A stretch of DNA of 64,000 nucleotides from an uncultured Candidatus Saccharibacteria bacterium (GTDB lineage: Bacteria; Patescibacteriota; Minisyncoccia; UBA6257; 2-01-FULL-56-20): contig CAZYEL010000001.1 of assembly GCA_964646415.1 (NCBI GenBank), forward strand, positions 394 through 64,393. The letters run 5' to 3'. Under the pieces are notes generated by a model. The model had not been told where the DNA came from. It made no database searches and was given only the letters and a program-made list of their open reading frames with translations. A program made the position numbers and the translations under genes. Below are positions 1,712 through 50,295 of the stretch, in pieces (positions within the stretch are counted from its first letter, which is position 1; each line of letters begins with the position of its first letter).

Positions 1712-1760
1712 TCAATATGAGGAAGTCCGACTTCCTTAAGGAATCCGGACTTCGGGGAAC
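1712..1760. repeat. direct repeat copy B flanking the vapBC module (promoter/operator side of vapB)
   Basis: 'ttcaatatgaggaagtccgacttccttaaggaatccggacttcggggaac' matches copy A at 1011..1061. Confidence 0.7.
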
Positions 1761-1784
1761 TTATCGCTTAACGCTTACCGCTAT

Positions 1785-4319
1785 TTATATCACCACCACG
1801 CCCGCAATTCTGTCTCCTGAACTCAAGTTCATAATCCGCACGCCTTGCGCGGAGCGGCCGGTCTGGCGGACGCTCTTTAGCTCCGTCCGAATCACCTGCC
1901 CCTTCGCCGAGAGCGCGAGCATTTCCATCTCCTCGCTCACCACCGTTCCCGCAACCACCTTTCCCGTCTTCGCGGTCACGTTCGCGGTCTTGATGCCGGA
2001 ACCGCCGCGGTTCTGGGTTTTATATTCCTTAAGCGGCGTCTGCTTCCCGAATCCGTTCGCCATAACCACCAAAAGTTTCGCGGTGTCCCCCTTCTTCACG
2101 ATGTCGCACCCCGCGACCGCGTCGCCCGTGCGAAGCCGGATGGCACGCACACCCGCCGCGCCGCGCCCCATGGGACGCGCTTGCGACTCCGCAAAACGGA
2201 CGGATTGCCCTTGTTCCGTTACCAGTATCACCTGCTCGTCGCCTTTCGAAATCCGCACCCACTTCAGCAGGTCGCCTTTTTTTCCGCCCGAGGCGGATCC
2301 GCCTTTGGTGGACAACTTAATCCCGATGATGCCCGTGCGGCGGATGTTTTCGAAATCCTTAAGCGCGGTCTTTTTCACTATCCCATGCTTGGTTACCATC
2401 ACAAGATAGATTCCCTTGTCGCTTGTCGCTTGTCGCTTGTCGCTCGATGGCAGGTTCACAATCGCGCTCACGCTTTCTTCGGCAGGAAGTTCGAGGAAGT
2501 TATGAATCGCTTTCCCTTTCGAGGTGCGGCTCGCGGCGGGGATTTCGTACGCACGCGTTTCGAATACTCTCCCGCGGTCGGTGAAGAAAAGAATCCGGTC
2601 GTGCGTGTTCGCGTGGAAGAAATGCGAAAGGAAATCCTCGTCCGCCACGTCCGACCCGATGAGCCCCTTCCCGCCCCGCCGCTGCGCTTTGAAGGAATCC
2701 GGCGGTACGCGTTTGATGTACCCGCTCGAAGAGAACGTCACAATAGCCTCCTCTTCGGGAACAAGGTCCTCGTCCGTCATTTCTTTGAGGGCAGAGTTCA
2801 CCACATGCGTCCGCCGCGCATCGCCGTATTTGGTTTTGAGTTCCGCAAGCTCCTGCTTCACCACCTCGAGCATCCGCGCGGGGCTCTTCAAAATAAGCGT
2901 GAGTTCTTTTATGAGCGCCCGTTTCTCCTTGAGTTCCGCATCGATTTTCTCACGCTCAAGCGCCGCCAAAGTCTGGAGCTTCATTTCCAAAATTGCCACC
3001 GCCTGGAGCTCCGAGAGCTTGAACCCTTTCATGAGGTTCATCCGCGCATCCTCGCGGTCCTTTGATTTCTTGATGGTTGCAATCACCTTGTCGATTACGT
3101 CCAAGGCCTTCGCAAGCCCTTCCAAAATATGCGCCCGCTCTTCCGCTTTCCTTAAATCGAACTGCGCGCGGCGGCGCACGATTTCCTTGCGATGCGCGAT
3201 GTAGGCGAGGAGCATCTCCTTCAGGGAGAAAAGCTCCGGCTGGATGCCGTCCCGCAAGGCAATCATATTGAAATGAAAATCCTTCTGGAGGTCGGAGTGC
3301 TGGTAGAGCTGGTTCAATACTTTCTGCGGCGCGGCGTCGGACTTGAGCTCCACCACAATCCGCAGGCCTTCGCGGTCGGACTCGTCGCGGAGGTCGCGGA
3401 TGCCTTCTACGCGCTTATCCGTAACGAGCATCGCAATGTGCTTCACAAGCTCGGACTTGTTCACCTGGTAGGGAATTTCCGTGATGACAATGTCGAACCC
3501 CCCCTGCCTGCCGGCAGGCAGGCGCGCACCACTCTCTCCCTTCTTGCGCTCCACAATCTCCGCTTTCGCGCGGGCCGTTACCGCGCCGCGCCCCGTCGCA
3601 TACGCCGTCCGAATAGCGGCGCGGTCGTAAATAACGCCGCCCGTCGGGAAATCCGGCCCCTTCACGTGCTCCAACAAATCCTCCCCCGTCGCGCCGGGCT
3701 TCTCCATAAGAAGAAGCGTCGCGTCCACCACCTCCACAAGGTTGTGCGGCGGGATACTCGTCGCCATCCCCACCGCGATTCCCAAAGTGCCGTTAATCAA
3801 AAGGTTGGGGAGCTTCGCGGGGAATACTTTCGGCTCCTCGCGGGTCGCGTCATAGTTCGGCAGCCAGTCCACCGTTTCTTTCTCGATATCAAAAAGCATC
3901 TCCTCCGCGACTTTCGAGAGACGCGCTTCCGTGTACCGCATCGCTGCGGGAGAATCCCCGTCGACGCTGCCGAAGTTTCCCTGCCCCTGCACAAGCGGGT
4001 ACCGGAGCGAGAAGTCCTGCGCCATCCGCGCGAGCGTGTCGTAAATCGCCACGTCGCCGTGCGGGTGGTATTTCGCCATCGTCTCGCCCACCACATTCGC
4101 CGATTTCCTGAACCTGGCGAGATGCGTGAGGCCGATGGACCACATGGTCCAAAGCACGCGCCGATGCACCGGCTTCAGCCCGTCGCGCACGTCCGGCAGG
4201 GCGCGCGCGACAATGACCGACATGGCATAGTCGAGGTAGGATTCGCTAAGCTCGCTCGTGATTGGACGTTTTTCTACGTTGTCTGGCATAGCATCGGATT
4301 TCGTGCTTCGGACTTTCAC
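1785..4319 (-). CDS. gyrA: DNA gyrase subunit A (probable true start at 4289, MPDNVEKRPITSEL...)
   Basis: Matches GyrA throughout: N-terminal 'YLDYAMSVIVARALPDVRDGLKPVHRRVLW', the active-site Tyr region and a C-terminal beta-pinwheel. Contains an in-frame (CGACAAG)4 heptad repeat at 2414..2444. Confidence 0.95.
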   Translation of the reverse strand: MKVRSTKSDAMPDNVEKRPITSELSESYLDYAMSVIVARALPDVRDGLKPVHRRVLWTMWSIGLTHLARFRKSANVVGETMAKYHPHGDVAIYDTLARMAQDFSLRYPLVQGQGNFGSVDGDSPAAMRYTEARLSKVAEEMLFDIEKETVDWLPNYDATREEPKVFPAKLPNLLINGTLGIAVGMATSIPPHNLVEVVDATLLLMEKPGATGEDLLEHVKGPDFPTGGVIYDRAAIRTAYATGRGAVTARAKAEIVERKKGESGARLPAGRQGGFDIVITEIPYQVNKSELVKHIAMLVTDKRVEGIRDLRDESDREGLRIVVELKSDAAPQKVLNQLYQHSDLQKDFHFNMIALRDGIQPELFSLKEMLLAYIAHRKEIVRRRAQFDLRKAEERAHILEGLAKALDVIDKVIATIKKSKDREDARMNLMKGFKLSELQAVAILEMKLQTLAALEREKIDAELKEKRALIKELTLILKSPARMLEVVKQELAELKTKYGDARRTHVVNSALKEMTDEDLVPEEEAIVTFSSSGYIKRVPPDSFKAQRRGGKGLIGSDVADEDFLSHFFHANTHDRILFFTDRGRVFETRAYEIPAASRTSKGKAIHNFLELPAEESVSAIVNLPSSDKRQATSDKGIYLVMVTKHGIVKKTALKDFENIRRTGIIGIKLSTKGGSASGGKKGDLLKWVRISKGDEQVILVTEQGQSVRFAESQARPMGRGAAGVRAIRLRTGDAVAGCDIVKKGDTAKLLVVMANGFGKQTPLKEYKTQNRGGSGIKTANVTAKTGKVVAGTVVSEEMEMLALSAKGQVIRTELKSVRQTGRSAQGVRIMNLSSGDRIAGVVVI
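2414..2444. repeat. heptanucleotide microsatellite (CTTGTCG)4 inside gyrA, encoding SDKRQATSDK
   Basis: Four perfect tandem 7-mers. The sense-strand 31-mer 'agcgacaagcgacaagcgacaagcgacaagg' is identical to 28826..28856 inside uvrD. Confidence 0.9.
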
Positions 4320-7123: not shown

Positions 7124-7426
7124 GCCGCGGTAGCTCAGTGGTAGAGCATTCGCCTGAACTCTTCGGGCACCGATTCAGTAATGAATCGGCGAAAACTGGG
7201 TGAACTCGGGGAAACTTCTTTTTTAAAGAACAATCCCGAGCCAAGCCCCGACGCAAAATCGGGGAAGGTGTAGAGACTATCCCTTCGGGGAGTACTCTCC
7301 AACATGGGTCGGAGCGGAAGCGCCCAGCTCCCGTAATCGCACGGCGATTTTATGGGATGATGATATAGTCCAAACTTCGTAAGGAAGAGCGATTGGTCGG
7401 GTGTTCGATTCACCCCCGCGGCACCA
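7124..7426 (+). tRNA. tRNA-Phe(GAA) interrupted by a group I intron in the anticodon loop (encoded CCA)
   Basis: 5' exon GCCGCGGTAGCTCAGTGGTAGAGCATTCGCCT (7124-7155). 3' exon GAAGAGCGATTGGTCGGGTGTTCGATTCACCCCCGCGGCACCA (7384-7426). The acceptor stem is a perfect 7 bp, the T-arm is GGGTG/TTCGATT/CACCC, and the anticodon loop is CT-GAA-GA. Confidence 0.85.
7156..7383 (+). mobile_element. group I self-splicing intron (228 nt, no internal ORF) between tRNA-Phe positions 33 and 34
   Basis: Exon U33 precedes the 5' splice site. The internal guide sequence GGGC pairs with exon GCCU. Conserved R-like 'gtagagactat' and S-like 'gatgatatagtcc' elements form P7 (AGACUA/UAGUC). The intron ends with G (cgtaaG). 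Confidence 0.8.
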
Positions 7427-11118: not shown

Positions 11119-11943
11119 TTACTTCTCGTTCAACGCGTAGAAATTCTCAAAAAGTTTCGCCACAAGGATAGGACCCGTGCCTCCGGGGGTAGGAGTATAT
11201 ACAACAGCTTCGAGCTTTAAGCTTTTAGCTTTAAGGGAATCAGGGTCGAAATCGCCAAGGAGTTTTCCGTCTACGGAGTCGTAGCCGAAATCAATCACGA
11301 GCGCATTTCCTTTAAGCATTGCTGCATTGAAAAGTTTTGCTTTGCCGACACCGGAAATTACCACGTCGCAATTCTTTAGTATGGCGAAATCCGCTCCGCG
11401 CCCCAGAATATAAAGCTCGCTCACCTTACGCATAAGCCAGACCGCAATGGGCTTTCCTATGAGCATCCCCGCGCCGATGACCACTGCCCGATTACCCTTC
11501 AAATCAAAGTTCGCGCACCGCAATACCTCTTCCACGGTGGCGACCGCAGGGTGGAGCACCTTCGCGCGATTGTTATAGTGTGCGCCCAGCGTCCGCTCAC
11601 TCAAGCAATCAGGGTCTTTCTCCGGCGGAATCGCATTCACGATGTATGTGGCGTTCAAGGGCTCAGGGAGCGGCAGCTGCACAATCACGCCGCCGCACGT
11701 TTTCCCCGCGGCGATTTTTCCCACTTCTTCCCGCAGCTTGTCGTTCCCGAGCGCGGGGTCGAGTTTATAGATGCGGTAGTCAATTCCCAACCCTTTCGCG
11801 GTGTCCTGTTTCAGCTTCTGGAAACTCGCGGACGCGGGGTCGTCCCCGATCAAAACCCCGGCGAAGAATTTCTTCGGCTTCGGTTGTTCTTTCAGCCGTG
11901 CGAGGAGTTCGGCGGCGATTTTTTTTCCGTCAATCACAATCAT
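11119..11943 (-). CDS. folD: bifunctional methylenetetrahydrofolate dehydrogenase/cyclohydrolase
   Basis: 274 aa with the conserved 'YTPTPGGTGPILVAKLFEN' C-terminal motif and the Rossmann 'VVIGAGMLIGKP'. Confidence 0.9.
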   Translation of the reverse strand: MIVIDGKKIAAELLARLKEQPKPKKFFAGVLIGDDPASASFQKLKQDTAKGLGIDYRIYKLDPALGNDKLREEVGKIAAGKTCGGVIVQLPLPEPLNATYIVNAIPPEKDPDCLSERTLGAHYNNRAKVLHPAVATVEEVLRCANFDLKGNRAVVIGAGMLIGKPIAVWLMRKVSELYILGRGADFAILKNCDVVISGVGKAKLFNAAMLKGNALVIDFGYDSVDGKLLGDFDPDSLKAKSLKLEAVVYTPTPGGTGPILVAKLFENFYALNEK

Positions 11944-12046
11944 CGAGTAAGTAGTAGGTAGTATGTGGTAGGTAGTAAAAAATGCAACAGTAGCGCTTGT
12001 TTTTGCCCATATTGCCCTACTACCTACTACTTACCACCTACTAGCG
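11944..12046. repeat. MITE-like element with imperfect terminal inverted repeats of (T)AGTAGGTAG units in the glyA-folD spacer
   Basis: Left arm 'agtaggtagtatgtggtaggtagt', right arm 'ctactacctactacttaccacctact'. The internal 'gcaacagtagcgcttgtttttgc' region has a T-tract. An exact 23-nt copy of the left arm recurs inverted at 17453..17475. Confidence 0.6.
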
Positions 12047-15247: not shown

Positions 15248-15365
15248 ATGCGCAAAACAGTGTAGATAATTTTGGCATTATCCGCAACCTCCCTTGTTTT
15301 GAGCCTCGTTTTTTCGTATGCTTAACCCGTCCTAAGTTCTAATGGCTAATTTCTAATCACTCCCC

Positions 15366-20222: not shown

Positions 20223-20846
20223 TTACGACTTCTTCACAATTTGGTCAATCAAGCCGTACTCTTTCGCTTCCGCGGCGGTCATGTAGAAATCGCGGTCGGT
20301 GTCTTTCTCTATTTTCCCGATAGCCTGTCCCGTGTGCTTCGCGAGAATCTGGTTGATGTTGTCTTTAATCTTAATAATGTGCCGCGCGGTGATTTCCACT
20401 TCGGTTGCCTGGCCCTCGGCGCCACCCATGACCTGGTGCAGAAGAATTTCCGAGTTTGGCAACGTGAAGCGCTTCCCCTTCTTTCCCGCAGCGAGCAGCA
20501 CCGCGCCCATTGACGCCGCCATGCCTACGCACATCGTAACCACATCCGGCTTCACATACTGCATCGTGTCGTAAATCGCCATTCCCGCCGTTACCGACCC
20601 GCCGGGAGTATTCAGGTACAACTTAATATCTTTTTTCGAATCCTCATGCTCAAGGAACAGTAACTGGGCAATCACATTATTTGCCACCGCATCATTCACG
20701 GGTCCTCCCAAAAAAATGATGCGCTCTTTGAGAAGGCGGGAATAAATGTCGTACGCCCGTTCGCCATACTGGCTTTTTTCGATAACGGTGGGGATAAGAT
20801 TCATCTTGGCATAAATCCGAAACTCTAATTTCGAAATCCTAAACAA
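20223..20846 (-). CDS. clpP: ATP-dependent Clp protease proteolytic subunit (probable start MNLIPTV at 20804)
   Basis: Catalytic Ser region '[14 protein letters not shown]' and 'RIIFLGGPV'. Confidence 0.9.
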
Positions 20847-20940
20847 ATGACAAATTCTAAACTCGAATGCTCCAAACTTTGGAATTTAGATATTCGTGTT
20901 TGGAATTTGTTTAGAGTTTCGTGTTTCGATATTCGGATTT
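20824..20940. repeat. AT-rich palindromic intergenic element (cargo-less member of the TTGGAATTT/GAAATCCGAATATCGAAA repeat family)
   Basis: Left arm 'tcgaaatcctaaacaaat' and right arm 'atttgtttagagtttcgtgtttcgatattcggattt' are inverted. The right arm reverse complement shares an exact 18-mer 'gaaatccgaatatcgaaa' with 39972..39989. Confidence 0.7.
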
Positions 20941-22971: not shown

Positions 22972-24273
22972 TTATTCCTTCGCTTCCTTGACCGAGGAAG
23001 CCTCATCGTTTTCTTTTTCATCTTTAACTTCGGGAATACCGGCTACTCCCCCCTCCTGCGTTTCTTCGGGACGGGTCTGGGAACGTACATCAAGCTTCCA
23101 TCCGGTAAGCTTCGCCGCGAGGCGGACATTCTGCCCGCCTCTCCCGATTGCAAGACTCAATTGGTCTTCGGGCACGTACACGCGCGCCTCCCGGCGAGGG
23201 AGTACTTCGACGCGCTCGGCTTTCGCGGGCGACAACGCATTGCCCACAAATTTCCCCGGGTCTTCTGACCATTCTATAATGTCCACCTTCTCCGGACCAA
23301 GCTCATTCGTAACCGCCATAACCCGCGTGCCGCGCTGCCCCACAAGCGCACCCACCGGATCCACCCCCTCCGCTTTCGATGCCGCGGCAATCTTCGTGCG
23401 GTTCCCCGCTTCCCGGGCAATCGCTTTTACTTCCACAACTCCTTCCGCAAGCTCGGGAACTTCAAGTTCAAAAAGTTTCGCGACGAACTTAGGATGCGAA
23501 CGTGAAAGCACGATGCCCGGCAGACGCGTGTCTTCTTGCACCGCAAGCACGAGAAAGCGCAGACGCTCTCCCGAGCGGTAATGCTCTCCCGGAATGGACT
23601 CGTTTGCAAACATCACCCCCACCGTGCGTCCAAGGTCGATGTACACATGTCCCCGCTCGAACCGCTGTACGATGCCGCTCACAATTTGCCCTTCTTTATC
23701 GCGCCATTCGGAGAGAATCGAGTCACGTTCCGATTCCCGCAATTTCTGGAGGATGATTTGCTTCGCAGTCTGGGCCGCGATGCGGCTGAAGTCCTCATGC
23801 GTCTCAAGCGGGAACAGCATCTCATCGCCAAGCTTCACGTTTGGTTTTACTTTCTTCGCTTCATCGAGCAATACATGCCGCTCGGCGTTGTAGCGGGGCA
23901 ACGCCGCTTCTCCTTGCTGCTCCGGAGATACTGCTTCGGGCACTGCTGCCTCCTCCGTTCCCTCCTCCACTATCCGCACCGTCGATTCGTCGACAATCGT
24001 CTTCACCTGCCAGAAACGCAACTCGCCCGATTTCGAGTCGAGCTTCGCTCTCACAATATCTCCACGCGTTCCGTATTCTTTTTTATACGCAGCCGCGATA
24101 GATGATTCGATCGCTTCAAGCACCCGTTCAGGCTCAAGCCCCTTTTCTTCGGCGACTTGTTTGAGCGCCCGGGATATATCTTTTATGTTCAGCATCGTAT
24201 TAATTAAAAATCCCGCATACGCGGAATTCATTCCTTGCCTATCCAGGCTACTCCAATGCGACGCAGGGGTCAA
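22972..24273 (-). CDS. nusA: transcription termination/antitermination factor NusA (probable start MLNIKDIS at 24195)
   Basis: NusA N-terminal domain, S1 domain and two KH domains ('AIGRGGQNVRLAAKLTGWKLDV'). Confidence 0.9.
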   Translation of the reverse strand: MTPASHWSSLDRQGMNSAYAGFLINTMLNIKDISRALKQVAEEKGLEPERVLEAIESSIAAAYKKEYGTRGDIVRAKLDSKSGELRFWQVKTIVDESTVRIVEEGTEEAAVPEAVSPEQQGEAALPRYNAERHVLLDEAKKVKPNVKLGDEMLFPLETHEDFSRIAAQTAKQIILQKLRESERDSILSEWRDKEGQIVSGIVQRFERGHVYIDLGRTVGVMFANESIPGEHYRSGERLRFLVLAVQEDTRLPGIVLSRSHPKFVAKLFELEVPELAEGVVEVKAIAREAGNRTKIAAASKAEGVDPVGALVGQRGTRVMAVTNELGPEKVDIIEWSEDPGKFVGNALSPAKAERVEVLPRREARVYVPEDQLSLAIGRGGQNVRLAAKLTGWKLDVRSQTRPEETQEGGVAGIPEVKDEKENDEASSVKEAKE

Positions 24274-24278
24274 CCCCT

Positions 24279-24698
24279 CTATCCGACATTTTCATAGTGC
24301 CGGATGGCAGACTTCTCTTCTTCTTCCATAGTGATTGCGACAAGGTCGATCTGCCACCCGCGCCTCTCACGGAGCAATTCATCATGCTCATTCGCGAAAA
24401 GCATGGAGGTGCGCCGCAGTTTTCGTATTTTAGCACCCGACATTTGATCTTCCGGCTGGAGACTCCCTCTGCGCATTGTCTTCACTTCCACGAAGACCAG
24501 CGTACCGTTTGGATGTTTTGCAATGATATCAATCTCCCCCCACGGCTTGCGGTAATTCCGCTCGATGATACGGTAGCCCTTTCTTGAAAGGAATCCGGAG
24601 GCAATGTCCTCGCCAAGTTTTCCAGTCTCCCCTTTCTTCATGCTATATAATAGTACTGTATGCGCGCCAACAGTTAAACTATGTTTCGTGATAAACAA
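24279..24698 (-). CDS. YraN-family (UPF0102) endonuclease (probable start MKKGETG at 24641)
   Basis: '[22 protein letters not shown]...GEIDIIA' is the YraN PD-(D/E)xK signature. Confidence 0.7.
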
Positions 24699-25477
24699 AT
24701 GCTCACTTACGACTACATAAGGGGATTAATAACGGGTGAGGGATGCTTCACATTTTGCAGCGTTAGACATAAGGAGAAAGGAATTGTAAGTAATATTCCC
24801 ACATTTGCATTGGGGATGAACGAAAGGGATAAGATTCTTGTAGAAATCGTAAAAGAGTCGCTAGGTCTGAGAAATAGGATTTACGCATACGCTCCGAGAA
24901 AAAGGAAGGATGGTTATAAAAGGGCAGGAAGCGTACACCTCATGGTAAGGGATTTCGGACAACTGAAAAATGTGATAGTGCCGCTCTGCTATAAGAAGTT
25001 AAAAGGGCATAAGTCAATACAATTCGAGGAATGGATATTTGCGATAGAAAGCGATCCAACGGTACCAAAAATATACAAACTCATACCAAAAATCTATAAG
25101 TCGGGATTTTATGAGAATATCAAAAAGTTTGATTAAAATTTTCCCATTTGTTTGTTGAATCACAAACCAAAATTTCCTAAATCATAGAAAACATCAAATA
25201 ATCTATATTTACCAATGGTTTGTCAGTGTTTATCAATAAATGCACATTTTCTGACAAACAAAAAAGTTTATCAGAAATATTAGCCTTCAATCTAAATCCT
25301 TTGTATATTCTATTTCCGGCAATAACTCAGCAGTATGTATTGCCGAATACTATTGCCGATTTAATCCATGGAAATGGGTTCCTTTGGGCTCCGAGGGCTT
25401 AAAGCATTCTGCTCTTTCGCCTTCGCCAAAATCAAAGATGTAAAGCGCTGTGAGTAAGCGATGAGGGACTATATGGT
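24642..25477. mobile_element. AT-rich (~32% GC) island: LAGLIDADG HEG plus 340-nt ORF-less structured tail
   Basis: Sharp GC drop relative to flanking yraN and dksA. The tail contains hairpins 'gtttgtcag...ctgacaaac' and 'cggcaata...tattgccg'. Confidence 0.5.
24681..25136 (+). CDS. LAGLIDADG homing endonuclease (single-motif, free-standing)
   Basis: The motif '[12 protein letters not shown]' at residues 13-24, 151 aa and low-GC codon usage mark this as a classic I-CreI-like single-motif enzyme. Confidence 0.75.
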
Positions 25478-25822
25478 ATGCTAGATTCCATGGACCAAAA
25501 AAATCTTTCGGAGTATCAGAGAAAATTAGAGGAGAGGAAGAAAGCGCTTCTTGCCGAGGTGAAGTCACATAACACTCCGGGAAGCTTCGGAAATGATGTC
25601 GACGCTTCAAGCGAAGAAACAGACCAGGCCGAAGAAGAGGGGAATCGGCAGGCAATCGCGGAATCGCTCCGAGACGACATTAACGAAGTGGACTCGGCGC
25701 TCGAGAAAATCCAGCGGGGAACGTACGGCGTATGCGAACAATGCGGCGCATCGATTGAAACCGACGTACTTGCAACCGCGCCTGAATCTGCGTTGTGCCG
25801 CTCATGCAAAAAAAAGAAGTAG
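25478..25822 (+). CDS. DksA/TraR-family C4-type zinc-finger protein
   Basis: An acidic coiled-coil followed by 'CEQCGASIETDVLATAPESALCRSC'. Confidence 0.7.
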   Translation: MLDSMDQKNLSEYQRKLEERKKALLAEVKSHNTPGSFGNDVDASSEETDQAEEEGNRQAIAESLRDDINEVDSALEKIQRGTYGVCEQCGASIETDVLATAPESALCRSCKKKK

Positions 25823-25864
25823 TGTCGTCCCATATGGTGCCCGCGGTGCAACTTTCCTAGTTTC

Positions 25865-27391
25865 ATGCGCGACCACCTTGCCCGCGTACACTCTGCAGAA
25901 CTTGAAGGGATTCACGCGCGCCCCATTGAGGTGGAAGTGGATTTGAATGTCGGGCTCCATTCGTTCACCATTGTCGGCCTTGCCGACAAAGCACTGAACG
26001 AAGCCCGCGAACGGGTGAACTCTTCACTTAAGAATTCGGGAGTAAAACCGCCCAACCGGGAGAACCGGAAAATCACGGTGAATCTCGCTCCTGCGGACGT
26101 AAAAAAAACCGGCTCGCAGTACGACCTTGCAATTGCAATCGGATATCTTCTTGCAACTCACCAGATACAAAAGTTCGAAACGCACGACAAGCTCTTTGTA
26201 GGGGAGCTTGCTTTGGACGGGCGGCTGCGACCGGTACGCGGCGCCTTGAGCATCAGTCATATGGCCGCTCAATCCGGATTCCGCTATGTATTTCTCCCCG
26301 CCTGCAACGCAAACGAAGCCTCGGTGGTTGCCGAAACACATGTGGTCCCGATTGAAACCCTGAACGATGCAATCGAGTTCCTTGAAAGCCGCCGGCCACT
26401 TGCGCGCCATGTATACCGCCCCGCGGAAGCTATCGCTTCGAATGTTCCGGACTTTGCCGACGTGAAAGGACAAGAAAATGCGAAGCGCGCACTCATCATC
26501 GCCGCGGCAGGAGGACACAACCTTCTAATGAGTGGGCCTCCAGGAGTAGGGAAGAGTCTTCTTGCCCAGGCAATGGTGAGCATCTTGCCGCCGATGGACC
26601 CCGAGGAATCCATCGAGGCCACCAAAATATGGAGTGCGGCGGGGCTTACCGTACAAGGACTTCTCACCGCGCGGCCTTTCCGCGCACCTCATCAAACCGC
26701 AACTCTTCCCGCAATCGTGGGAGGCGGCAGCGACCCAAAGCCGGGAGAAATCAGTCTTGCGCATCGCGGCGTACTCTTCCTCGACGAGTTTCCGGAGTTC
26801 CAACGGCATATTCTCGAAGCGCTCCGGGCACCCATGGAAACGGGCACAGTACATGTCGCCCGCGCAAAGGGCGCACTCACATTCCCCGCGCGTTTTACGC
26901 TTGTCGCCGCCATGAACCCCTGCCCATGCGGATACCATGGCGACCCAGAGAAAGACTGCAAATGCTCCCCGTACGAAGTAATTAAATATCAAAAGAAAAT
27001 CTCCGGACCGCTCACGGACCGGATTGACCTGCATGTGACCGTGCCCCGAGTACCGATCGCGCATCTCCGGGAATCACACACTTCCACGCTCACCAGTGCA
27101 GATGCCCGTGCGGCAATCACGGCCGCACGCGCCCGCCAGCGCACACGGCTTAGCCCGCGCCACATCACTACGAATGCCGATATGAACTCCAAACACGTCG
27201 AGTCTCTGCTCAACATGGATCGCACCGGCGAAGAATTCGTCGCCACACTCACGCACAGCGAACTCTCGCCTCGCGCATATTATCGCCTCCTCAAGACCGC
27301 CCGCACCGTTGCCGACCTCGAAGAATCCGAATTTGTTACCGCCTCACACCTTGCGGAAGCGTGGGGATATCGTGTCCGCGAGCAAGCGTAG
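25865..27391 (+). CDS. comM: YifB/ComM-family Mg-chelatase-like AAA+ ATPase
   Basis: An N-terminal Lon-like domain, Walker A 'GPPGVGKS', 'GVLFLDEFPEF' and a C-terminal Mg-chelatase ChlI domain. Confidence 0.85.
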   Translation: MRDHLARVHSAELEGIHARPIEVEVDLNVGLHSFTIVGLADKALNEARERVNSSLKNSGVKPPNRENRKITVNLAPADVKKTGSQYDLAIAIGYLLATHQIQKFETHDKLFVGELALDGRLRPVRGALSISHMAAQSGFRYVFLPACNANEASVVAETHVVPIETLNDAIEFLESRRPLARHVYRPAEAIASNVPDFADVKGQENAKRALIIAAAGGHNLLMSGPPGVGKSLLAQAMVSILPPMDPEESIEATKIWSAAGLTVQGLLTARPFRAPHQTATLPAIVGGGSDPKPGEISLAHRGVLFLDEFPEFQRHILEALRAPMETGTVHVARAKGALTFPARFTLVAAMNPCPCGYHGDPEKDCKCSPYEVIKYQKKISGPLTDRIDLHVTVPRVPIAHLRESHTSTLTSADARAAITAARARQRTRLSPRHITTNADMNSKHVESLLNMDRTGEEFVATLTHSELSPRAYYRLLKTARTVADLEESEFVTASHLAEAWGYRVREQA

Positions 27392-28617: not shown

Positions 28618-30456
28618 ATGGATTTATCTAACCTTGATCCTCAGCAACAACGCGCCGTACAATCTCCCCATGTTCCGCTCCTGATCGTCGCAGGAGCAGG
28701 AACGGGGAAAACACGCACGCTCACAAGCCGACTTCTTCTTTTTATCGAACAAGGGGTGGCGCCTTCCCGCATTTGCGCGCTCACCTTCACCAATAAAGCG
28801 GCGCGGGAGATGGCAGAGCGGGTCCAGCGACAAGCGACAAGCGACAAGCGACAAGGAGAACCGTTCATCGGCACATTCCACTCGCTTGGCGCACGAATCT
28901 TGCGCGCCGACGCGCGCGAGCTTGGCCGCACTCCGCACTTCACGATTTTCGACGACCATGATGCGCTCTCCGCAATAAAAAAAGTGCTGAAGGAATTGGA
29001 TATGAGAAGCACCAAGCCCGCACGCCTTCTTCAACTCATCTCTTTCACAAAAAGCGGCGCGGCGCGCGGAGAAAAATTCCACGCTAAGAACGAACAAGCG
29101 GCGCTGGAGCGTTACGAGACTTTCCTTGCGCGCAACAATGCTTTTGACTTCGACGACCTCATTGCAAAAACCGTATGGCTTTTCGAAAAGAAGCCCGCAA
29201 TTCTCGCAAAATACCGAGAGCGCTACACGCACATCCTCGTTGACGAATACCAAGACGTGAGCCCCGGGCAATACGCCCTCGTACGCCTCCTTGCGGGGCA
29301 ACGCAACCAAGTAAGCGTCGTGGGAGACGACGCGCAGATGATTTACGGATGGCGCTATGCGAACCTCGAAACCTTTCTCGGTTTCGAGCGGGATTGGCCA
29401 AATGCCCGCGTCGTTTTCCTCGAAGAAAACTACCGATCCACCGCAACAATCGTGCACGCAGCTTCCGCGGTCATCGCTCACAACAAAATAGCCCGCGAAA
29501 AGAATCTCTGGACGCAGAACCCCGACGGGGAACCGCTTGCCATTATTGAAACAGCCGATGAGAACGACGAAGCGGAGTGGGTGGCGCAGCGCATAGCTGC
29601 GCAGTATGAGAGTAAAAATAAACATGCCGAACCTCATTCTCATACCCATGCTTATTCTTCCCCTTCGACGGCCGTGCTCTACCGCACGAACGCCCAATCG
29701 CGCGCAATCGAGCAAGCGCTCCTGCGGCGCGGCATTCCATACCGTATCTATGGCGGTCTTAAATTCTACGAGCGCCGGGAAATAAAAGATATTATCGCCG
29801 CGCTTCGCCTCACCCTGAACCCCCAAGATGAGATAAGCCGTGAACGGCTCGAGAAAGCGTTCCGGGTGCGCACATTCCGCGAGCTCCTTCCCATACTCCT
29901 CGCAAACGGCAAAAAAAGTCCCGCCGCGGCAATCCAATCATTCCTCGCCGCAGCAGATTATTTCGATTACCTGGAACGGGAAATGACAAACTCCGAAGAG
30001 CGCCGCGAGAACATAAGCGAACTCATCCGCTTTGCGGAAGGGTTTGCCGAACTTGCACCCTTTCTTGAGCATGTCGCATTAGTGCAATCAACTGACGATA
30101 TGAATGCGAGCAAGCAATCGCTCTCCTCCGCAAACAAACCTGCCGCGCATCTTTCCACCATTCATCTCGCAAAAGGTCTTGAATTTGACCGGGTATTTCT
30201 CGTAGGGTGCGCGGAAGGGCTTCTTCCCCACGCACGCTCAATGGAAAGCGGAGAGGGAATAGAAGAGGAGCGCCGGCTTATGTACGTTGCCATGACGCGC
30301 GCGCGGCAGGAACTTGCAATCTCATTCTTTGGAATTCCTTCCCGGTTTATCGGTGAAATCCCCGCCGGTTTGCCACATTTCATACGAACCGAACACTCTT
30401 CCGATTTTGAAGCGGGAACCGGCGAAACCGAAATCCAGCTTCTGGACGAAGAATAG
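28618..30456 (+). CDS. uvrD: UvrD/PcrA-family ATP-dependent DNA helicase
   Basis: Motif I 'AGAGTGKTRTL', Ia 'TFTNKAAREM', II 'ILVDEYQDV' and motif VI region 'YVAMTRARQEL'. Contains the in-frame (GCGACAA)4 repeat at 28826..28856. Confidence 0.9.
   Translation: MDLSNLDPQQQRAVQSPHVPLLIVAGAGTGKTRTLTSRLLLFIEQGVAPSRICALTFTNKAAREMAERVQRQATSDKRQGEPFIGTFHSLGARILRADARELGRTPHFTIFDDHDALSAIKKVLKELDMRSTKPARLLQLISFTKSGAARGEKFHAKNEQAALERYETFLARNNAFDFDDLIAKTVWLFEKKPAILAKYRERYTHILVDEYQDVSPGQYALVRLLAGQRNQVSVVGDDAQMIYGWRYANLETFLGFERDWPNARVVFLEENYRSTATIVHAASAVIAHNKIAREKNLWTQNPDGEPLAIIETADENDEAEWVAQRIAAQYESKNKHAEPHSHTHAYSSPSTAVLYRTNAQSRAIEQALLRRGIPYRIYGGLKFYERREIKDIIAALRLTLNPQDEISRERLEKAFRVRTFRELLPILLANGKKSPAAAIQSFLAAADYFDYLEREMTNSEERRENISELIRFAEGFAELAPFLEHVALVQSTDDMNASKQSLSSANKPAAHLSTIHLAKGLEFDRVFLVGCAEGLLPHARSMESGEGIEEERRLMYVAMTRARQELAISFFGIPSRFIGEIPAGLPHFIRTEHSSDFEAGTGETEIQLLDEE
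28826..28856. repeat. heptanucleotide microsatellite (GCGACAA)4 inside uvrD, encoding RQATSDKRQ
   Basis: 'agcgacaagcgacaagcgacaagcgacaagg' is a 31-nt exact sense-strand match to the gyrA copy. Confidence 0.9.
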
Positions 30457-30461
30457 GCCTC

Positions 30462-31682
30462 CTAACTTGTCCCCGCCATATACAACTTCCCGTCATAATT
30501 ATCAACCGCACAACACTCACCTTCGCACACCGGCTGTTCGCACTGCCCCGACTCCCGGTTGTAAAGCCCGACAATATTTTGTCCCGCGTTCGGGTTTTTA
30601 TTGATATAGAAAAGTGGAGAGGCGAAAGTTGACCACGAAACAAAAAGAGCAAGGGAGCTGTCATTCACCGCGTTGTTGAGATGGATAACAAAACCGGTAT
30701 TGCATACCGAGCAGTCCATCCTGAAACTGATTTTGCCCCCAAATGGAGGTTTTCCTCCTACCTGCGCGTGCGCCCTTCTGACAAAGAAAGAAGAAAGTTG
30801 CGTGAGTACGTTGAAAATATCCGGAGCGTGGAACGATGTCTGCCACGCGCGTTTTCCAAACTCATTATTGTAATACGTCCCGGCGGCATCATACGCACTT
30901 ATTTTTTGCCGAAGTTGCACAGAGGGATTCCCGTCGCTCGCGAGAAGTTCATTAAGAAGTCCCTCGGTAAGCATATCGAATGCCACCATGGCGCGGGCAA
31001 GCTCCACTGCTCCGCCCGAAACTTTTACCGTTTTCACATACGCAATGCGCGCAGCGACAAAGTCGCGCACCGTAAGAAGCGAGGGCTTCGCCGCCGCCCA
31101 CCCTCCGGGCAAAAGAGCCATATCCATAAGATCGGCGACGGCGTAAGGAACCCCGTCACTTTCCCTTAAAATCGACACAAAGCGGGCACGCTCAAATTGC
31201 AACTTCGCCCCGGAATCCACGATGATGCCCGCAAACTCATCAAAACTTTGTACCCCGCCCAATGCAACCGACAATTCGCTGTCTCGAACCGGAGGAAGAG
31301 GGAGAGGGGACTCTGCGGGCAGTGCACTCTTTTTCACTTTCTTCAAAGTCGCCACACTCTCTTGCGGCGTACTAGTAAGCGAGGGGCTTGAGGGCATCGG
31401 TATTGCTAACTGCGGCAAGGAAGGAATCTCAAAAGACGGGATGCCGGAAATCGGCGCAAGTCTGTTTCGTCCCGAGGGCACAAATGCGTTTGGTGGGCTT
31501 GGCTTCGCCGGTTGCGGTGCCGGAGGTTGTTGCGCCAACGGAAGTTCTCCGTCCCCGCCGCGATGAGGGATAAACAAGGGGATAATCGCCACGGCAACGA
31601 CAAATGCGCCTGCGAGCATGAATGCCGCCCACCAAAGTTTCGAGCCATGCAACATCTCTCTATTATATATCCAACACTTCAC
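30462..31682 (-). CDS. hypothetical secreted/membrane-anchored protein with proline-rich linker (probable start MLHGSKLWW at 31655)
   Basis: An N-terminal TM helix, a Pro-rich spacer and a C-terminal Cys-containing domain. No known motif. Confidence 0.4.
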   Translation of the reverse strand: MKCWIYNREMLHGSKLWWAAFMLAGAFVVAVAIIPLFIPHRGGDGELPLAQQPPAPQPAKPSPPNAFVPSGRNRLAPISGIPSFEIPSLPQLAIPMPSSPSLTSTPQESVATLKKVKKSALPAESPLPLPPVRDSELSVALGGVQSFDEFAGIIVDSGAKLQFERARFVSILRESDGVPYAVADLMDMALLPGGWAAAKPSLLTVRDFVAARIAYVKTVKVSGGAVELARAMVAFDMLTEGLLNELLASDGNPSVQLRQKISAYDAAGTYYNNEFGKRAWQTSFHAPDIFNVLTQLSSFFVRRAHAQVGGKPPFGGKISFRMDCSVCNTGFVIHLNNAVNDSSLALFVSWSTFASPLFYINKNPNAGQNIVGLYNRESGQCEQPVCEGECCAVDNYDGKLYMAGTS

Positions 31683-31712
31683 ACTTCACACTCCACCGTT
31701 CATAATGCTCGC

Positions 31713-39446: not shown

Positions 39447-39959
39447 ATGCAATTCCAAATTCCCCAATTCGTGGAAACGGAAGATAAGATTGTGGGCCCC
39501 CTCACGCTCAAGCAATTCATCTACGTTGCCATCGCGGGCGGCATCTCGCTCCTTCTCTATTTCATAGTCCAGATATGGCTGTGGCTTATACTCTCCATTC
39601 CCATCATCGGAATCGGCGTCGGCTTTGCATTTATAAAAGTCGGGGGGAGGGCGCTCCCCGCGATCGCCCGAGCGGCATTCTCCTACGTGTGGAGGCCCCA
39701 AACCTACGTGTGGCAACCAGAGAAGGCTCCTGCGACAAGCGGCAAGGGGCAAGAGGCAAGAGGCGAAGAAAAATCTGCGAGGCTTTCACTCGAAGAAGTC
39801 CTTTCGGGCTTCGCGCTCCGCCGGACATGGCAAAGACTCCAAACCGGCGCCAGCAAGGTTTCCCCGGGAATTTTCCTAGGCAAGTCCCAAGACCGCTACG
39901 CCATCTACCGCAAGCGCAGCGGGGAATTGGGAGCGGCGAGAAGAGTGGATTATAGGTAA
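39447..39959 (+). CDS. small 2-TM membrane protein, VirB3/PrgI-like candidate
   Basis: 170 aa. 'MQFQIPQFVETEDKIVGPLTLKQFIYVAIAGG' is followed by two hydrophobic helices, and the gene sits directly upstream of VirB4. It contains a degenerate heptad repeat at 39732..39768. Confidence 0.35.
   Translation: MQFQIPQFVETEDKIVGPLTLKQFIYVAIAGGISLLLYFIVQIWLWLILSIPIIGIGVGFAFIKVGGRALPAIARAAFSYVWRPQTYVWQPEKAPATSGKGQEARGEEKSARLSLEEVLSGFALRRTWQRLQTGASKVSPGIFLGKSQDRYAIYRKRSGELGAARRVDYR
39732..39768. repeat. degenerate heptanucleotide repeat (GNGRCRA)5 related to the gyrA/uvrD GCGACAA repeat
   Basis: 'gcgacaa gcggcaa ggggcaa gaggcaa gaggcga ag'. Confidence 0.6.
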
Positions 39960-39967
39960 TAGGAGAA

Positions 39968-40030
39968 GCACGAAATCCGAATATCGAAATCCTAAACAAA
40001 TCCGAATGAGCCAAATTCCAAATTCCAAAG
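39968..40030. repeat. upstream inverted-repeat arm of four-helix-bundle gene cassette (TTGGAATTT family)
   Basis: 'gcacgaaatccgaatatcgaaatcctaaacaaatccgaatgagccaaattccaaattccaaagg'. Shares the 'aatatcgaa ...(23-24 nt)... aaattccaa' layout with the reverse complement of 40381..40452 and an 18-mer with 20824..20940. Confidence 0.65.
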
Positions 40031-40380
40031 GGAAAACGTACGACCTCGAAGAGCGGGCGCTTCTGTTCACCAAACGAACAGCCCGATATGTAAATAAACT
40101 TCCGAAGACCATACCGAACGTAGAAAGCGGCAAGCAGCCTATGAGAGCTAGCGGTTCCGTCGGGGCAAACTACATTGAAGCGAATGAGTGTTTGGGCAAG
40201 AAAGACTTTGCAATGAAGATCAAAACATCAAAAAAGGAGGCGAAGGAAGCTAGATACTGGCTCGCAATCACCGAACCTGCGCCCGAGGAAGAAAAAGAGA
40301 AAGAGGCGCTTTCTCAAGAAGCTACAGAACTCATGAAGATCTTCGGGTCAATTCTCGAAAAGACGAAATGGGCGGTATAA
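40006..40380 (+). CDS. four-helix-bundle protein (23S rRNA intervening-sequence protein / TIGR02436 / Avd-like family)
   Basis: 124 aa. 'YDLEERALLFTKRTARYVNKLP...ASGSVGANYIEANE...SKKEAKEARYWL' matches the family signature. Confidence 0.6.
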   Translation: MSQIPNSKGKTYDLEERALLFTKRTARYVNKLPKTIPNVESGKQPMRASGSVGANYIEANECLGKKDFAMKIKTSKKEAKEARYWLAITEPAPEEEKEKEALSQEATELMKIFGSILEKTKWAV

Positions 40381-42873: not shown

Positions 42874-43650
42874 ATGGATGAAGAAGAGGGAAAACACAGC
42901 AAGATAGATTATTTCGGTCCGGGGATTGTTATGGCGTTTATCGCTGCGTTCGCGGGAGACCTTTTCTGGCTTCTGGTAATCGGGGCGTTCATCCCCCCGC
43001 CGCCTATAGGGCTCACGTTTCTTGCAGCAGGACTCCTCGCCCACTACCTCGCAGGGATGATGGTGGGCGGGTTCATTTTCTTTGAGTTGAAGCATTTCGT
43101 GCCTAAGGCTATTTTAGGAGCCGCGATACTTTTACCATTGCCGTTGCTTATGGTGGGTATGGGCATTGCGCTTATTGCCCAAAACCGGATTATAGAGATC
43201 CTGCTCATCCAAGCAGGGACGAAGCTGCTTGAGGCGGGTCTTGCCGCAACGGGTGTGGGGGCACTCGCGGCGGGAGCGGTTGAAGTGGCGGCGGACGCGA
43301 AAACCGTGCAGACTGTCGCCAGAGGCGCCAAAGCAGCCACCACAGTAGGGAAGGGTGGTCGTGCTGCAGAAACAACGGCGCAACGGGCAAAGCGCATCGC
43401 AAACCGCCTACAGCGGTACGCACCACAAGGTGGAGGAGGGGAGGAGGGATATGAAGACGAAGAGGAGGATGAGGGAGATGTGCCGGAAGAAGCATTTGGG
43501 GTGCAGAGAGGGCCCGTCGAAGAGCTCCAACAATCAACCATGGAAGAACTCCCACAAGTCGAAGAGGAACCAAAAGAAAGCGACGAGTCGGGAGAGGAAG
43601 AAAAAAAGCCCCCGCGGCTTGAGGACATACGCAAACCGGATAGTTTATAA
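42874..43650 (+). CDS. polytopic membrane protein with acidic C-terminal tail (T4SS-like operon)
   Basis: 258 aa with 4 predicted TM helices followed by an E/D-rich tail. Its start overlaps the virB4 stop (TAAATG). Confidence 0.45.
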   Translation: MDEEEGKHSKIDYFGPGIVMAFIAAFAGDLFWLLVIGAFIPPPPIGLTFLAAGLLAHYLAGMMVGGFIFFELKHFVPKAILGAAILLPLPLLMVGMGIALIAQNRIIEILLIQAGTKLLEAGLAATGVGALAAGAVEVAADAKTVQTVARGAKAATTVGKGGRAAETTAQRAKRIANRLQRYAPQGGGGEEGYEDEEEDEGDVPEEAFGVQRGPVEELQQSTMEELPQVEEEPKESDESGEEEKKPPRLEDIRKPDSL

Positions 43651-43657
43651 TTACTTT

Positions 43658-44377
43658 ATGGCGCGAATTTCTAAAAAAGCAGTGCGTGGGGCACTCGCCG
43701 TCGTAATACTCGGGGTGGGATACGGGTGGGCACTGTTGCTCGCACATGCCGCCACGCCGCCGCAGATAGTCATAAGCTGGCGCGCAGATACCTACACTCC
43801 TCCGGGCTATGCGGGTAAGGCGCTCCCCACCTCAAACTCCGTAATCGCGGCGTCTTTGGATATCCTTGCAAACAACAAGGGCACCGACCTTTCGGGGCAG
43901 CTTATCTATTGGTACGTAAACAACCGCCTTGCGGGAAGCGGGAAGGGGAGAACTTCAATAACATTCCGCGCACCTTCTGCCGCGCCGGACACTCTTGCGC
44001 TCCGCGTAGAAGTGCCTGGATACCCTGGTGGCGCCATAATCAAATCAATCAATATCCCCGTGGTGGTCCCCGAATCGGTGATTGTCGCTCCGCTCCCGCT
44101 CTTGCGCTTCACCCCGCCCTCCACAACGCTCACGGGGGCTCCTTACTTTTTTAATGTGCGCGACCCCCTCCTCCTCAAATTCGAGTGGGGAGCGAACTAC
44201 ACAGCCCTGCCTGCCGGACAAACCGATAACGCGCCGAAAGGCGACCCGCGCGTGCTCACACTCAACCTCAATCCCGACGCGCCCAAAGGCGCGCCGGTGC
44301 GCGTAACGCTCGGCATTACCAACCCATTAAGAGAGGCCGAGGGGGCACAATCATTTATTACGCTCACAACCCAATGA
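43658..44377 (+). CDS. secreted protein of unknown function (T4SS-like operon)
   Basis: 239 aa with a signal peptide 'AVRGALAVVILGVGYGWALLLAHAA'. Its stop overlaps the next start (ATGA). Confidence 0.45.
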   Translation: MARISKKAVRGALAVVILGVGYGWALLLAHAATPPQIVISWRADTYTPPGYAGKALPTSNSVIAASLDILANNKGTDLSGQLIYWYVNNRLAGSGKGRTSITFRAPSAAPDTLALRVEVPGYPGGAIIKSINIPVVVPESVIVAPLPLLRFTPPSTTLTGAPYFFNVRDPLLLKFEWGANYTALPAGQTDNAPKGDPRVLTLNLNPDAPKGAPVRVTLGITNPLREAEGAQSFITLTTQ

Positions 44378-48524: not shown

Positions 48525-48789
48525 TGCCCTATACTATCATGAGCCGCGCTTTCTGCCAACCCCTCGCCGGTCAGAAAACGCGATATGCACAGAAAGTCCC
48601 CAAACCTCCCCCCGGTCCCTTTTGACGACTCTCTGTTTCTCCATACAATTAACCACATCAGCCGCTTCTCCTCCCTCCTACGCTCATGCGGCTCTTCCAA
48701 AATATTCCGCGCATTGTCTGCCGCATCCATTTTGCCTTTCTTTCACCAATGAAAAAACAAAAAGTCGCGATTGCGCATCTTCTCGTACG

Positions 48790-50151: not shown

Positions 50152-50295
50152 TACACACCTCATCCACACAAACCTTTTCTTTCATCCTTTATCTTCTATA
50201 CATTATCAGCACTTATCCCCATATCCACAGGACTAACAGTATCAACAGTAACAATAATCTTATTCAATTAATCTAATACTACTCTACTTACTACT
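50152..50295. other. oriC candidate (DnaA-box cluster plus AT-rich unwinding element) in dnaA-dnaN spacer
   Basis: TCATCCACA (50160-50168), TTATCCCCA (50213-50221) and ATATCCACA (50221-50229) are each 8/9 matches to TTATCCACA. TTATCAGCA and GTATCAACA are 7/9. An AT-rich 'aataatcttattcaattaatctaatact' follows. Confidence 0.55.

Follow-up and report, generated by a model that had tools for sequence, protein, structure and literature searches.

The short tandemly repeated repetitive (STRR) sequences of cyanobacteria are one family of dispersed heptameric repeats. Another, with the unit GGGNATC, is found in Xanthomonas and Nostoc, and the four-unit preference seen in dispersed heptameric repeats has been attributed to G-quadruplex formation (Rehm et al. 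2015, PMC4692102). A third family, TAACTGA, occurs in Beggiatoaceae and cyanobacteria (MacGregor 2015, PMC4679880). More generally, heptanucleotides have been described as the commonest class of long simple sequence repeats (SSRs) in many prokaryotes, and polymerase slippage in a 7-nt register has been proposed as the cause of such long arrays (Mrazek, Guo and Shah 2007, as summarised in PMC4679880). The subject of the present study is a 31-nt tract of the unit GCGACAA that is found in identical form inside gyrA and inside the gene of a UvrD/PcrA-type helicase, in a 64,000-nt stretch (hereafter the window) of contig CAZYEL010000001.1 from an uncultured Candidatus Saccharibacteria bacterium. 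With a probability of roughly 0.6, the two tracts are members of a dispersed, lineage-persistent family of heptanucleotide tandem repeats, which act as near-neutral loop filler and not as a switch. The kind of repeat is known; what is new is its setting in loops of essential genes in the Candidate Phyla Radiation (CPR) and DPANN, together with a sense-only, 21-nt-step rule.

The arrays resemble the long 7-nt SSRs of that survey in their unit length, in the excess of period 7 over neighbouring periods and in their sporadic occurrence across phyla, whereas the survey, as relayed in PMC4679880, found non-triplet units to be rare in genes and the short arrays of low-GC loci (mostly CPR and DPANN) are here mostly within open reading frames (ORFs), in frame and in sense orientation. 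With the dispersed heptameric families the repeat has in common that one heptamer recurs at many loci, that about four units are preferred, and that many copies lie within tens of bases of gene starts or stops, as several arrays of the window do. Members of those families lie mostly between genes and are depleted from coding sequence, whereas here the repeat is translated, and 46 of the 66 short low-GC arrays lie in ORFs in sense orientation. The G-quadruplex explanation of the four-unit preference, moreover, cannot apply to GCGACAA.

Two further systems come close in other respects. Rickettsia palindromic elements (RPEs) are said to have been described by Ogata and colleagues in 2000 as inserted in frame in protein-coding genes. 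They are likewise short repeats in essential genes of a reduced genome, in frame and at surface positions that spare the fold, but they are 100-150 bp long, palindromic, of one family and with recognisable ends, whereas the present repeat is a 30-nt tandem heptamer without ends and with many different units. One feature of the RPE type, which is also that of miniature inverted-repeat transposable elements, is present: a defined length, with an identical 30/31-mer at three non-homologous sites. Cryptic simplicity, the name under which Tautz, Trick and Dover reportedly introduced slippage-generated hypervariable regions in 1986, also involves a slippage-like turnover through which simple sequence arises and becomes uniform in gene regions free of constraint, with concerted evolution; it differs from the present case in that here a strict 7-nt register leads to a 7-residue superperiod in the protein and to a 21-nt step rule.

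The 31-mer AGCGACAAGCGACAAGCGACAAGCGACAAGG, that is A(GCGACAA)4GG, has two sites in the window, each with 4.3 perfect head-to-tail units of 7 nt. The tracts and their host genes are as follows.

2414..2444, minus strand: perfect array A(GCGACAA)4GG in gyrA, translated as SDKRQATSDK within a C-terminal-domain loop.
28826..28856, plus strand: second, identical copy of the 31-mer, in the gene of the UvrD/PcrA-type helicase; it is read as (Q)RQATSDKRQ(G) and fills the loop that links motif Ia to GTFHS.
1785..4289, minus strand: gyrA coding sequence; the ORF is open to 4319, and the public protein P0001 starts at a Met 10 codons in.
28618..30456, plus strand: coding sequence of the UvrD/PcrA-family helicase, public protein P0121.

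The initial annotation had pointed to this identical, in-frame pair, and both sites were found again, with Pfam confirming the host genes: the gyrA product matches DNA_topoisoIV and six DNA_gyraseA_C repeats, and the product of 28618-30456 is a UvrD-family helicase. The public proteins P0001 (GyrA) and P0121 (helicase) both include the tract peptide. The analysis assigned the genome, that of an ultra-small groundwater bacterium, to Candidatus Liptonbacteria (Patescibacteria/CPR; metagenome-assembled genome GCA_016190325.1, contig JACPQV010000019.1). The essentiality of the uvrD-like gene is an assumption. A repeat search pairs the two tracts as 34 nt at 97% identity, and they are the only perfect arrays of at least three copies with a period of 6-15 in the window. 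The two-unit 14-mer GCGACAAGCGACAA, with up to two mismatches, has nine matches in the window against 0.59 expected, a count reached in none of 100 shuffles; the sharing of the 31-mer is confirmed and lies far beyond chance.

Both tracts are in frame, but the reading frames differ (..PSSDKRQATSDKGI.. in GyrA, ..VQRQATSDKRQGE.. in the helicase). Because 7 and 3 have no common factor, every sense frame of (GCGACAA)n yields the same peptide, a stop-free hydrophilic cycle A-T-S-D-K-R-Q, while the antisense strand would give L-S-L-V-A-C-R. The tracts lie on opposite genomic strands because the repeat sits on the coding strand. It had been proposed that any gain or loss of units shifts the frame; this holds for changes of one or two units but not for three, since 21 nt stay in frame.

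The loop of the helicase tract runs between FTNKAAREM..RV (motif Ia) and (P)FIGTFHS, and it is two residues longer than in PcrA when aligned to the solved structure 1PJR. In GyrA the tract falls in a loop of the C-terminal beta-pinwheel, which by alignment has seven residues more than the solved GyrA 8S7K, and among relatives this loop ranges from 7 to 35 residues. Lengths vary as widely in uvrD, where the loop has 36 nt in the window, 87 nt in the relative L121 and 72 nt in L122, between flanks that are about 80-90% identical (the L121 helicase has 88% amino-acid identity with that of the window). No two of the three uvrD loops are related in sequence, and short tandem repeats are present in each. 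The outcome that the initial annotation had named as refuting its reading, the same peptide written in other codons, was not seen in orthologues; their loop sequences are unrelated to the tract, so that the suggestion of a lineage-specific insertion was right in spirit. Tract positions are not conserved among close Liptonbacteria relatives. Judged from these alignments, both tracts lie in length-variable surface loops that tolerate any sequence.

A possible starting point is visible in gyrA. The loop of the relative L188, CCATCGAGTAACAAGGAA, can be laid out as CCATCG-AGTAACAAG-GAA, and that of the window as CCATCG-AGCGACAAG-(CGACAAG)x3-GGAA. The loop of the window has exactly 21 nt in addition to a seed, or a collapsed remnant, that is present in L188; AGCGACAAGG would be the 10-nt seed. 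The same gyrA loop holds other heptamer arrays as well, namely CTCATCR x4 and NNNCAAG x3 in L188 and GCTYAAA x4.4 in L337. A general 7-residue periodicity of the GyrA loop was sought across Parcubacteria and was absent (the loop is K-rich, with no specific offset); within that comparison, the GyrA-loop arrays are confined to the Liptonbacteria clade.

The gyrA gene also carries two palindromes. One, the 20-nt perfect palindrome CCTGCCTGCCGGCAGGCAGG at 3503..3522, belongs to a stretch of 21 nt that is inserted in frame when compared with L188; the second, GGCGGATCCGCC at 2292-2303, lies inside another GyrA insertion (STKGGSASGGKK). Both have the look of template-switch-like micro-insertions, and that at 3503-3522 would be an independent signature of this kind.

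Beyond the window, the coding behaviour of the repeat follows a simple pattern. Among the GCGACAA arrays of 35 nt or less in low-GC loci, 46 lie in long ORFs in sense orientation and 3 in antisense, with 17 unclear (p = 7e-11), whereas arrays longer than 35 nt in such loci are mostly non-coding. The host proteins ArgRS, GatA, GatB, TrmD, RuvC and LigA were confirmed by Pfam, and ValRS, LeuRS, IleRS, RecG and PheT were recognised by sequence motifs only; the architecture recurs in aminoacyl-tRNA synthetases, GatA/GatB, RuvC, TrmD and LigA of CPR bacteria, while among DPANN archaea it is present in genes for IleRS and of GatE type. Most runs measure 30-34 nt, beyond which their number falls steeply, and in an unbiased scan the exact 30-mer is the commonest form (9 of 13 arrays of 30 nt). 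A three-base periodicity of run lengths was suggestive, was not robust when the runs were split by ORF context, and was dropped. A three-unit step is seen directly between L233 (34 nt) and L320 (55 nt), which differ by 21 nt between flanks of 100% and 99% identity; the idea of a hypermutable tract under unusual constraint finds its counterpart, in spirit, in this difference at another locus. L233 and L320 represent one locus in two metagenomes, and a second array, ACAGCGA x3, follows there.

At orthologous sites the arrays stay perfect while their flanks have diverged.

GatA, L319 and L324: flank identity 71-78%, arrays identical at 31 nt.
RuvC, L237 and L284: flank identity 70-87%, arrays identical at 31 nt.
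IleRS, L098 and L320: flank identity 83%, arrays of 31 and 33 nt.
TrmD, L105 and L223: flank identity 58-62%, arrays of 30 and 31 nt.
ArgRS, three CPR classes: flank identity 58-70%, arrays of 27, 30 and 31 nt.

This is a pattern of concerted evolution, in which slippage or conversion homogenises the array while the unit drifts or is replaced. Replacement is seen at one site of a GatA loop, where L336 has a perfect (AATTTCC)4.7 and L319 has (GCGACAA)4.4, and the 7-nt register has left its mark on the protein: in the loop of 103 GatA homologues, residues seven positions apart are identical in 24.4% of comparisons, compared with 5-7% for offsets of 2-6, 8 and 9.

Several of these hosts show further peculiarities. 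The ArgRS genes of L023 (Azambacteria), L055 (Saccharibacteria) and L119 (Harrisonbacteria) hold arrays of about four units at one common site, just past the YVQYAHAR..IL(R/K) motif, and that of L023 has three arrays with the related units GCGACAA, GCGGCAA and GCGACAT. The GatA gene of L336 (P0249, L336 1001-2500) contains five to six heptamer arrays in 1.5 kb. The ValRS ORF of L011 (Liptonbacteria, 972 aa) has the tract in place of the usual GWP region after WFSS..STL, and apparently includes an inserted histidine-phosphatase-like segment (..FLIRHGETDWN..).

Period 7 is enriched well beyond the two tracts. Tandem Repeats Finder (TRF) reports 11 arrays of period 7 in the window, where dinucleotide shuffles give 1.7 (about 6-fold); the counts are 12 in the 21.9 kb of L335 and 6 in the 22.4 kb of L337. 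In 0.9 Mb of related loci, 191 perfect arrays of at least three copies have period 7, compared with 8, 4, 5 and 1 for periods 5, 6, 8 and 9. The other period-7 arrays of the window are listed here.

39732..39768, plus strand: degenerate array GCGACAA GCGGCAA GGGGCAA GAGGCAA GAGGCGA, in the tail at the C-terminus of an ORF of the PrgI family (39447-39959, Pfam).
1760..1781, minus strand: GCGGTAA GCGTTAA GCGATAA, 3 nt past the gyrA stop codon, with units that resemble GCGACAA.
11213..11235, minus strand: period-7 array, GCTWAAA on the gene strand, within a FolD-type ORF and encoding KAKSLKL.
11946..12043: two heptamer arrays in inverted orientation, AGTAGGT x4.6 and CCTACTA x4, which would fold into a long hairpin in the space between two minus-strand genes.
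15332..15357, plus strand: CTAATTT x3.7, just upstream of an ORF starting at 15366.
31674..31696, strand not assigned: ACACTTC x3.3, listed at the start of ORF 30462-31682.
40011..40029, plus strand: CCAAATT x2.7, in the first codons of ORF 40006-40380.
43931..43949, plus strand: GCGGGAA x2.9, within ORF 43355-44377.

The array at 39732-39768 had been noticed before as a degenerate third copy in a VirB3-like ORF; TRF agrees (4.7 copies, 88% matches), and Pfam places the ORF in the PrgI family. Its orthologue in L335 has another variant of the unit, GACAAAG x4.6. At the place in L121 that is syntenic to 31674-31696, the unit is again ACACTTC, with 2.6 copies. Inverted array pairs like that at 11946-12043 were also seen in L014, L038 and L088. 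A period-14 element, CGAAATCC..AAATCCTAAACAAAT, occurs at two places, 39970-40030 and 20818-20848; at 40006 it runs into the start of an ORF whose product is a 23S rRNA intervening-sequence protein. Two copies of a 40-nt hairpin element, AGGAAGTCCGACTTCC..GGAAGTCGGACTTCGGGGAA, lie at 1020-1059 and 1720-1759 with 90% identity; the element, one copy of which is just downstream of gyrA, looks like a repetitive extragenic palindromic sequence or like a shared terminator.

Separate loci of one genome or lineage tend to have the same unit. The identical 31-mer recurs in L335, there in a different loop of UvrD, and the same contig has a degenerate GACANGN array at another place; a third homologue of UvrD carries ATSDKRQ in yet another loop, and the unit CACTCAT is common to L188 (two loci, upstream of gyrA and inside its loop) and L335. 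At least 11 genomes among the scan matches listed have two to four loci each with the GCGACAA unit, mostly with unrelated flanks. As a seed, GCGACAA is ordinary: its unit class has 97 single copies in the window, rank 286 of 2344 among 7-mers, and by seed frequency the chance that two independent arrays have one unit is about 1 in 1300. Five GCGACAAG sites are unexpanded.

On a wider scale, (GCGACAA)3 matches at least 120 loci in reference genomes and at least 120 in metagenomes, and the genome matches span very different phyla, including Burkholderia, Xanthomonas, actinobacteria and cyanobacteria. Heptamers of the same composition served as controls in viral contigs, with 5 loci for GACGCAA, 23 for GCAGACA, 4 for GCACGAA and 12 for GCGGCAA, against 19 for GCGACAA. 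The wide spread of GCGACAA is therefore a general heptamer phenomenon, and one universal element behind it was rejected; GCGACAA as a unit has no special standing across organisms, yet it does cluster within single genomes and lineages. A literature search found nothing on the GCGACAA unit or on heptamer repeats in Patescibacteria.

From the anatomy of the arrays, the period-7 enrichment, the sense bias, the loop turnover, the 21-nt step and the same-unit clustering, we infer slippage or template-switch enzymology and a copying of the unit between loci. Under the favoured reading, arrays of about 30 nt (4.3 units) would arise and stay uniform through replication slippage or template switching with a register of 7 nt. 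Where the ORF is indispensable, a net change would survive only if it amounts to 21 nt (three units, seven codons), and an array would therefore jump only between about 1.3, 4.3 and 7.3 units. The copies retained would be those in sense orientation within surface loops where any sequence is tolerated, and the tract in GyrA and the helicase would be a near-neutral, self-homogenising loop filler. The identical unit, and the identical 31-mer, at non-orthologous sites would be explained if an existing array templated the expansion of short matching seeds elsewhere.

Several observations weigh against this account. Simple slippage by single units does not predict a one-step jump from 1.3 units to 4.3, and no donor array or intermediate was observed for uvrD, the part of this genome that was read being 64 kb plus about 10 kb. 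Some arrays within ORFs (for instance GatB in L040, 22 nt) have no recognisable flank seed, and such seedless arrays look like block insertion rather than local expansion. Perfect arrays at orthologous sites could mean selection on the nucleotide sequence. The 30-nt size is also found outside ORFs (L188 1467-1496), and the reading-frame filter alone is therefore insufficient.

Non-triplet microsatellites in genes are usually read as on/off switches, whereas here they are stable, in frame and housed in loops of housekeeping genes. Should loop filling by a dispersed heptamer family prove general, it would amount to a mutational engine for loop turnover in streamlined genomes and to a preference for four heptamer units that is independent of G-quadruplexes. 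It would also supply a testable rule (21-nt steps, sense only) for annotation and for the separation of such tracts from true contingency loci.

A bolder reading, which we consider rather unlikely, makes the four-unit arrays of about 30 nt a dedicated cassette, either mobile or functional: self-propagating selfish or functional DNA, or DNA serviced by an unrecognised templating activity. If true, such cassettes would invade surface loops of essential genes and rewrite them continually, among the ultra-small prokaryotes of CPR and DPANN and also outside these groups, would stay perfect over 25-40% flank divergence and would move in 21-nt quanta, a previously undescribed route from non-triplet microsatellites to protein-loop diversity.

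In its mobile form, a micro-cassette A(GCGACAA)4G of about 30 nt would be pasted by transposase-, integrase- or reverse-transcriptase-like machinery, and the copies that land in frame in loops would survive. The identical 31-mer at three non-orthologous sites in two genomes speaks for such pasting, as do the identity between the two uvrD sites, which goes on for 4/5 further nt, the prevalence of the exact 30-mer, the arrays without any flank seed, the several genomes with multiple GCGACAA loci, and the recurrence at one ArgRS site in three CPR classes and in TrmD. Across 114 insertion sites, however, positions -12 to +12 show no conserved flank base or motif and no target-site duplication, and no terminal structure was seen; the same result tells against the earlier idea that the tract is a target or footprint of a site-specific system. 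The 30-nt architecture is also built from other units (TCACTCA, GCAAGAA, AATTTCC), the control heptamers are about equally frequent in viral contigs (4-23 loci against 19), and the gyrA site has its seed in L188. No candidate enzyme adjoins the arrays, nothing suggestive stands next to the tracts of the window, and the tract itself has no palindromy. Pasting by dedicated machinery is thus unlikely. The notion of a spreading micro-insertion survives in part: the 31-mer does occur in another UvrD loop of a relative and the same unit does cluster, but no mobility machinery or element ends were found.

Independent local expansions without any exchange between loci are a further explanation, which we think improbable. 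GCGACAA would then be prone to expansion or well tolerated when translated, and ATSDKRQ would indeed make an ideal disordered linker; the recurrence of GCGACAA in many phyla and proteins and the gyrA seed in L188 are in keeping with this. The unit is nevertheless an ordinary one, for which the sharing by chance and the five unexpanded sites have been given above, and the gyrA and uvrD arrays agree in phase and in length too. A non-hydrophilic unit, CACTCAT, also recurs at several loci, including non-coding ones.

It is doubtful that (GCGACAA)4 is a functional nucleic-acid motif, that is, a binding platform for protein or RNA at the level of DNA or mRNA that is housed in coding loops since intergenic space is scarce in tiny genomes, and that would be conserved as a nucleotide sequence. 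Orthologous sites with flanks of only 58-87% identity have arrays that are perfect and identical, the arrays have a preferred size of about four units, the motif is present in two genes of DNA metabolism, and numerous other arrays directly adjoin the start or end of a gene, all of which would suit such a motif. Against it stand the lack of positional conservation among the close Liptonbacteria relatives, the wholly different unit at one orthologous GatA site between lineages, and the opposite orientation of the two tracts on one replichore. Neither the gyrA nor the uvrD tract has an Rfam match, and their folding z-scores (0.39 and -1.04) indicate no significant RNA structure.

The initial annotation had also spoken of the classic architecture of a contingency locus, in which single-unit slippage would toggle gyrA and uvrD. 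As in the contingency loci of Haemophilus and Neisseria (PMC2651432), the array is a perfect SSR inside an ORF, and its unit is not a multiple of 3. Here the resemblance ends. Contingency tracts are long and polymorphic in the population, and they sit near the 5' end of genes for surface structures, restriction-modification or lipopolysaccharide, whereas the GCGACAA tract is short (4.3 units), invariant in all assemblies, and placed in internal, tolerant and dispensable loops of housekeeping genes (GyrA and a UvrD/PcrA-type helicase), away from the N-terminus. Both tracts, each with its left junction and four units, were recovered in per-run assemblies of at least ten read sets from two accession series, namely Logan contigs L194, L210-L214 and others from SRR121133xx-4xx and SRR4343428/30, which are 100% identical to the window. 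The consensus is four units throughout these sets, from two projects, and among these contigs no other copy number appears at either tract. The gyrA left junction was also sought in metagenomes of the Joint Genome Institute for alleles of other copy number, without matches, and in the protein collection P0001 itself is the only entry of more than 90% identity. The sole length difference seen at such loci is 21 nt. A phase-variable switch is accordingly very improbable.

The possibility of an assembly or scaffolding artefact is practically negligible: a 31-mer in common can confuse de Bruijn assemblers, and the per-run contigs do break there, but the ORFs are intact on either side of the tracts, the tract peptide is present in P0001 and P0121, independent assemblies of many runs reproduce the junction with four units, and hundreds of loci from unrelated projects, including long-read metagenome-assembled genomes, have a like architecture. 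The breaks themselves fall inside the shared tract, with L194 ending at window position 2415 and L210-L214 at 28853 or 28855. The Logan assemblies were built with k=31, and their contigs stop at the tract because the 31-mer is common to two loci in a k=31 graph; as a practical point, shared 31-mers of this kind fragment k=31 assemblies at essential genes.

The window also contains dnaA and dnaN at 48622-51405 (48.6-51.4 kb), and the cumulative GC-skew has its minimum near 50 kb, so that a replication origin probably lies near 48.5 kb. A replichore-polar function of the tracts was considered and rejected, as both lie to one side of dnaA/dnaN and the GC-skew minimum, yet in opposite orientations. 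A low-GC stretch (45%) at 24000-26000 holds a small LAGLIDADG-type ORF, which also lies at L210 3720-4175 and L122 4093-4527, is kept in relatives adjoining an Mg-chelatase/MCM-like gene and may be a free-standing homing endonuclease. Finally, Rfam matches a group I intron at 7146-7389 on the plus strand, with 61 bits against a gathering score of 50, in a stretch of 47% GC near several tRNA genes.

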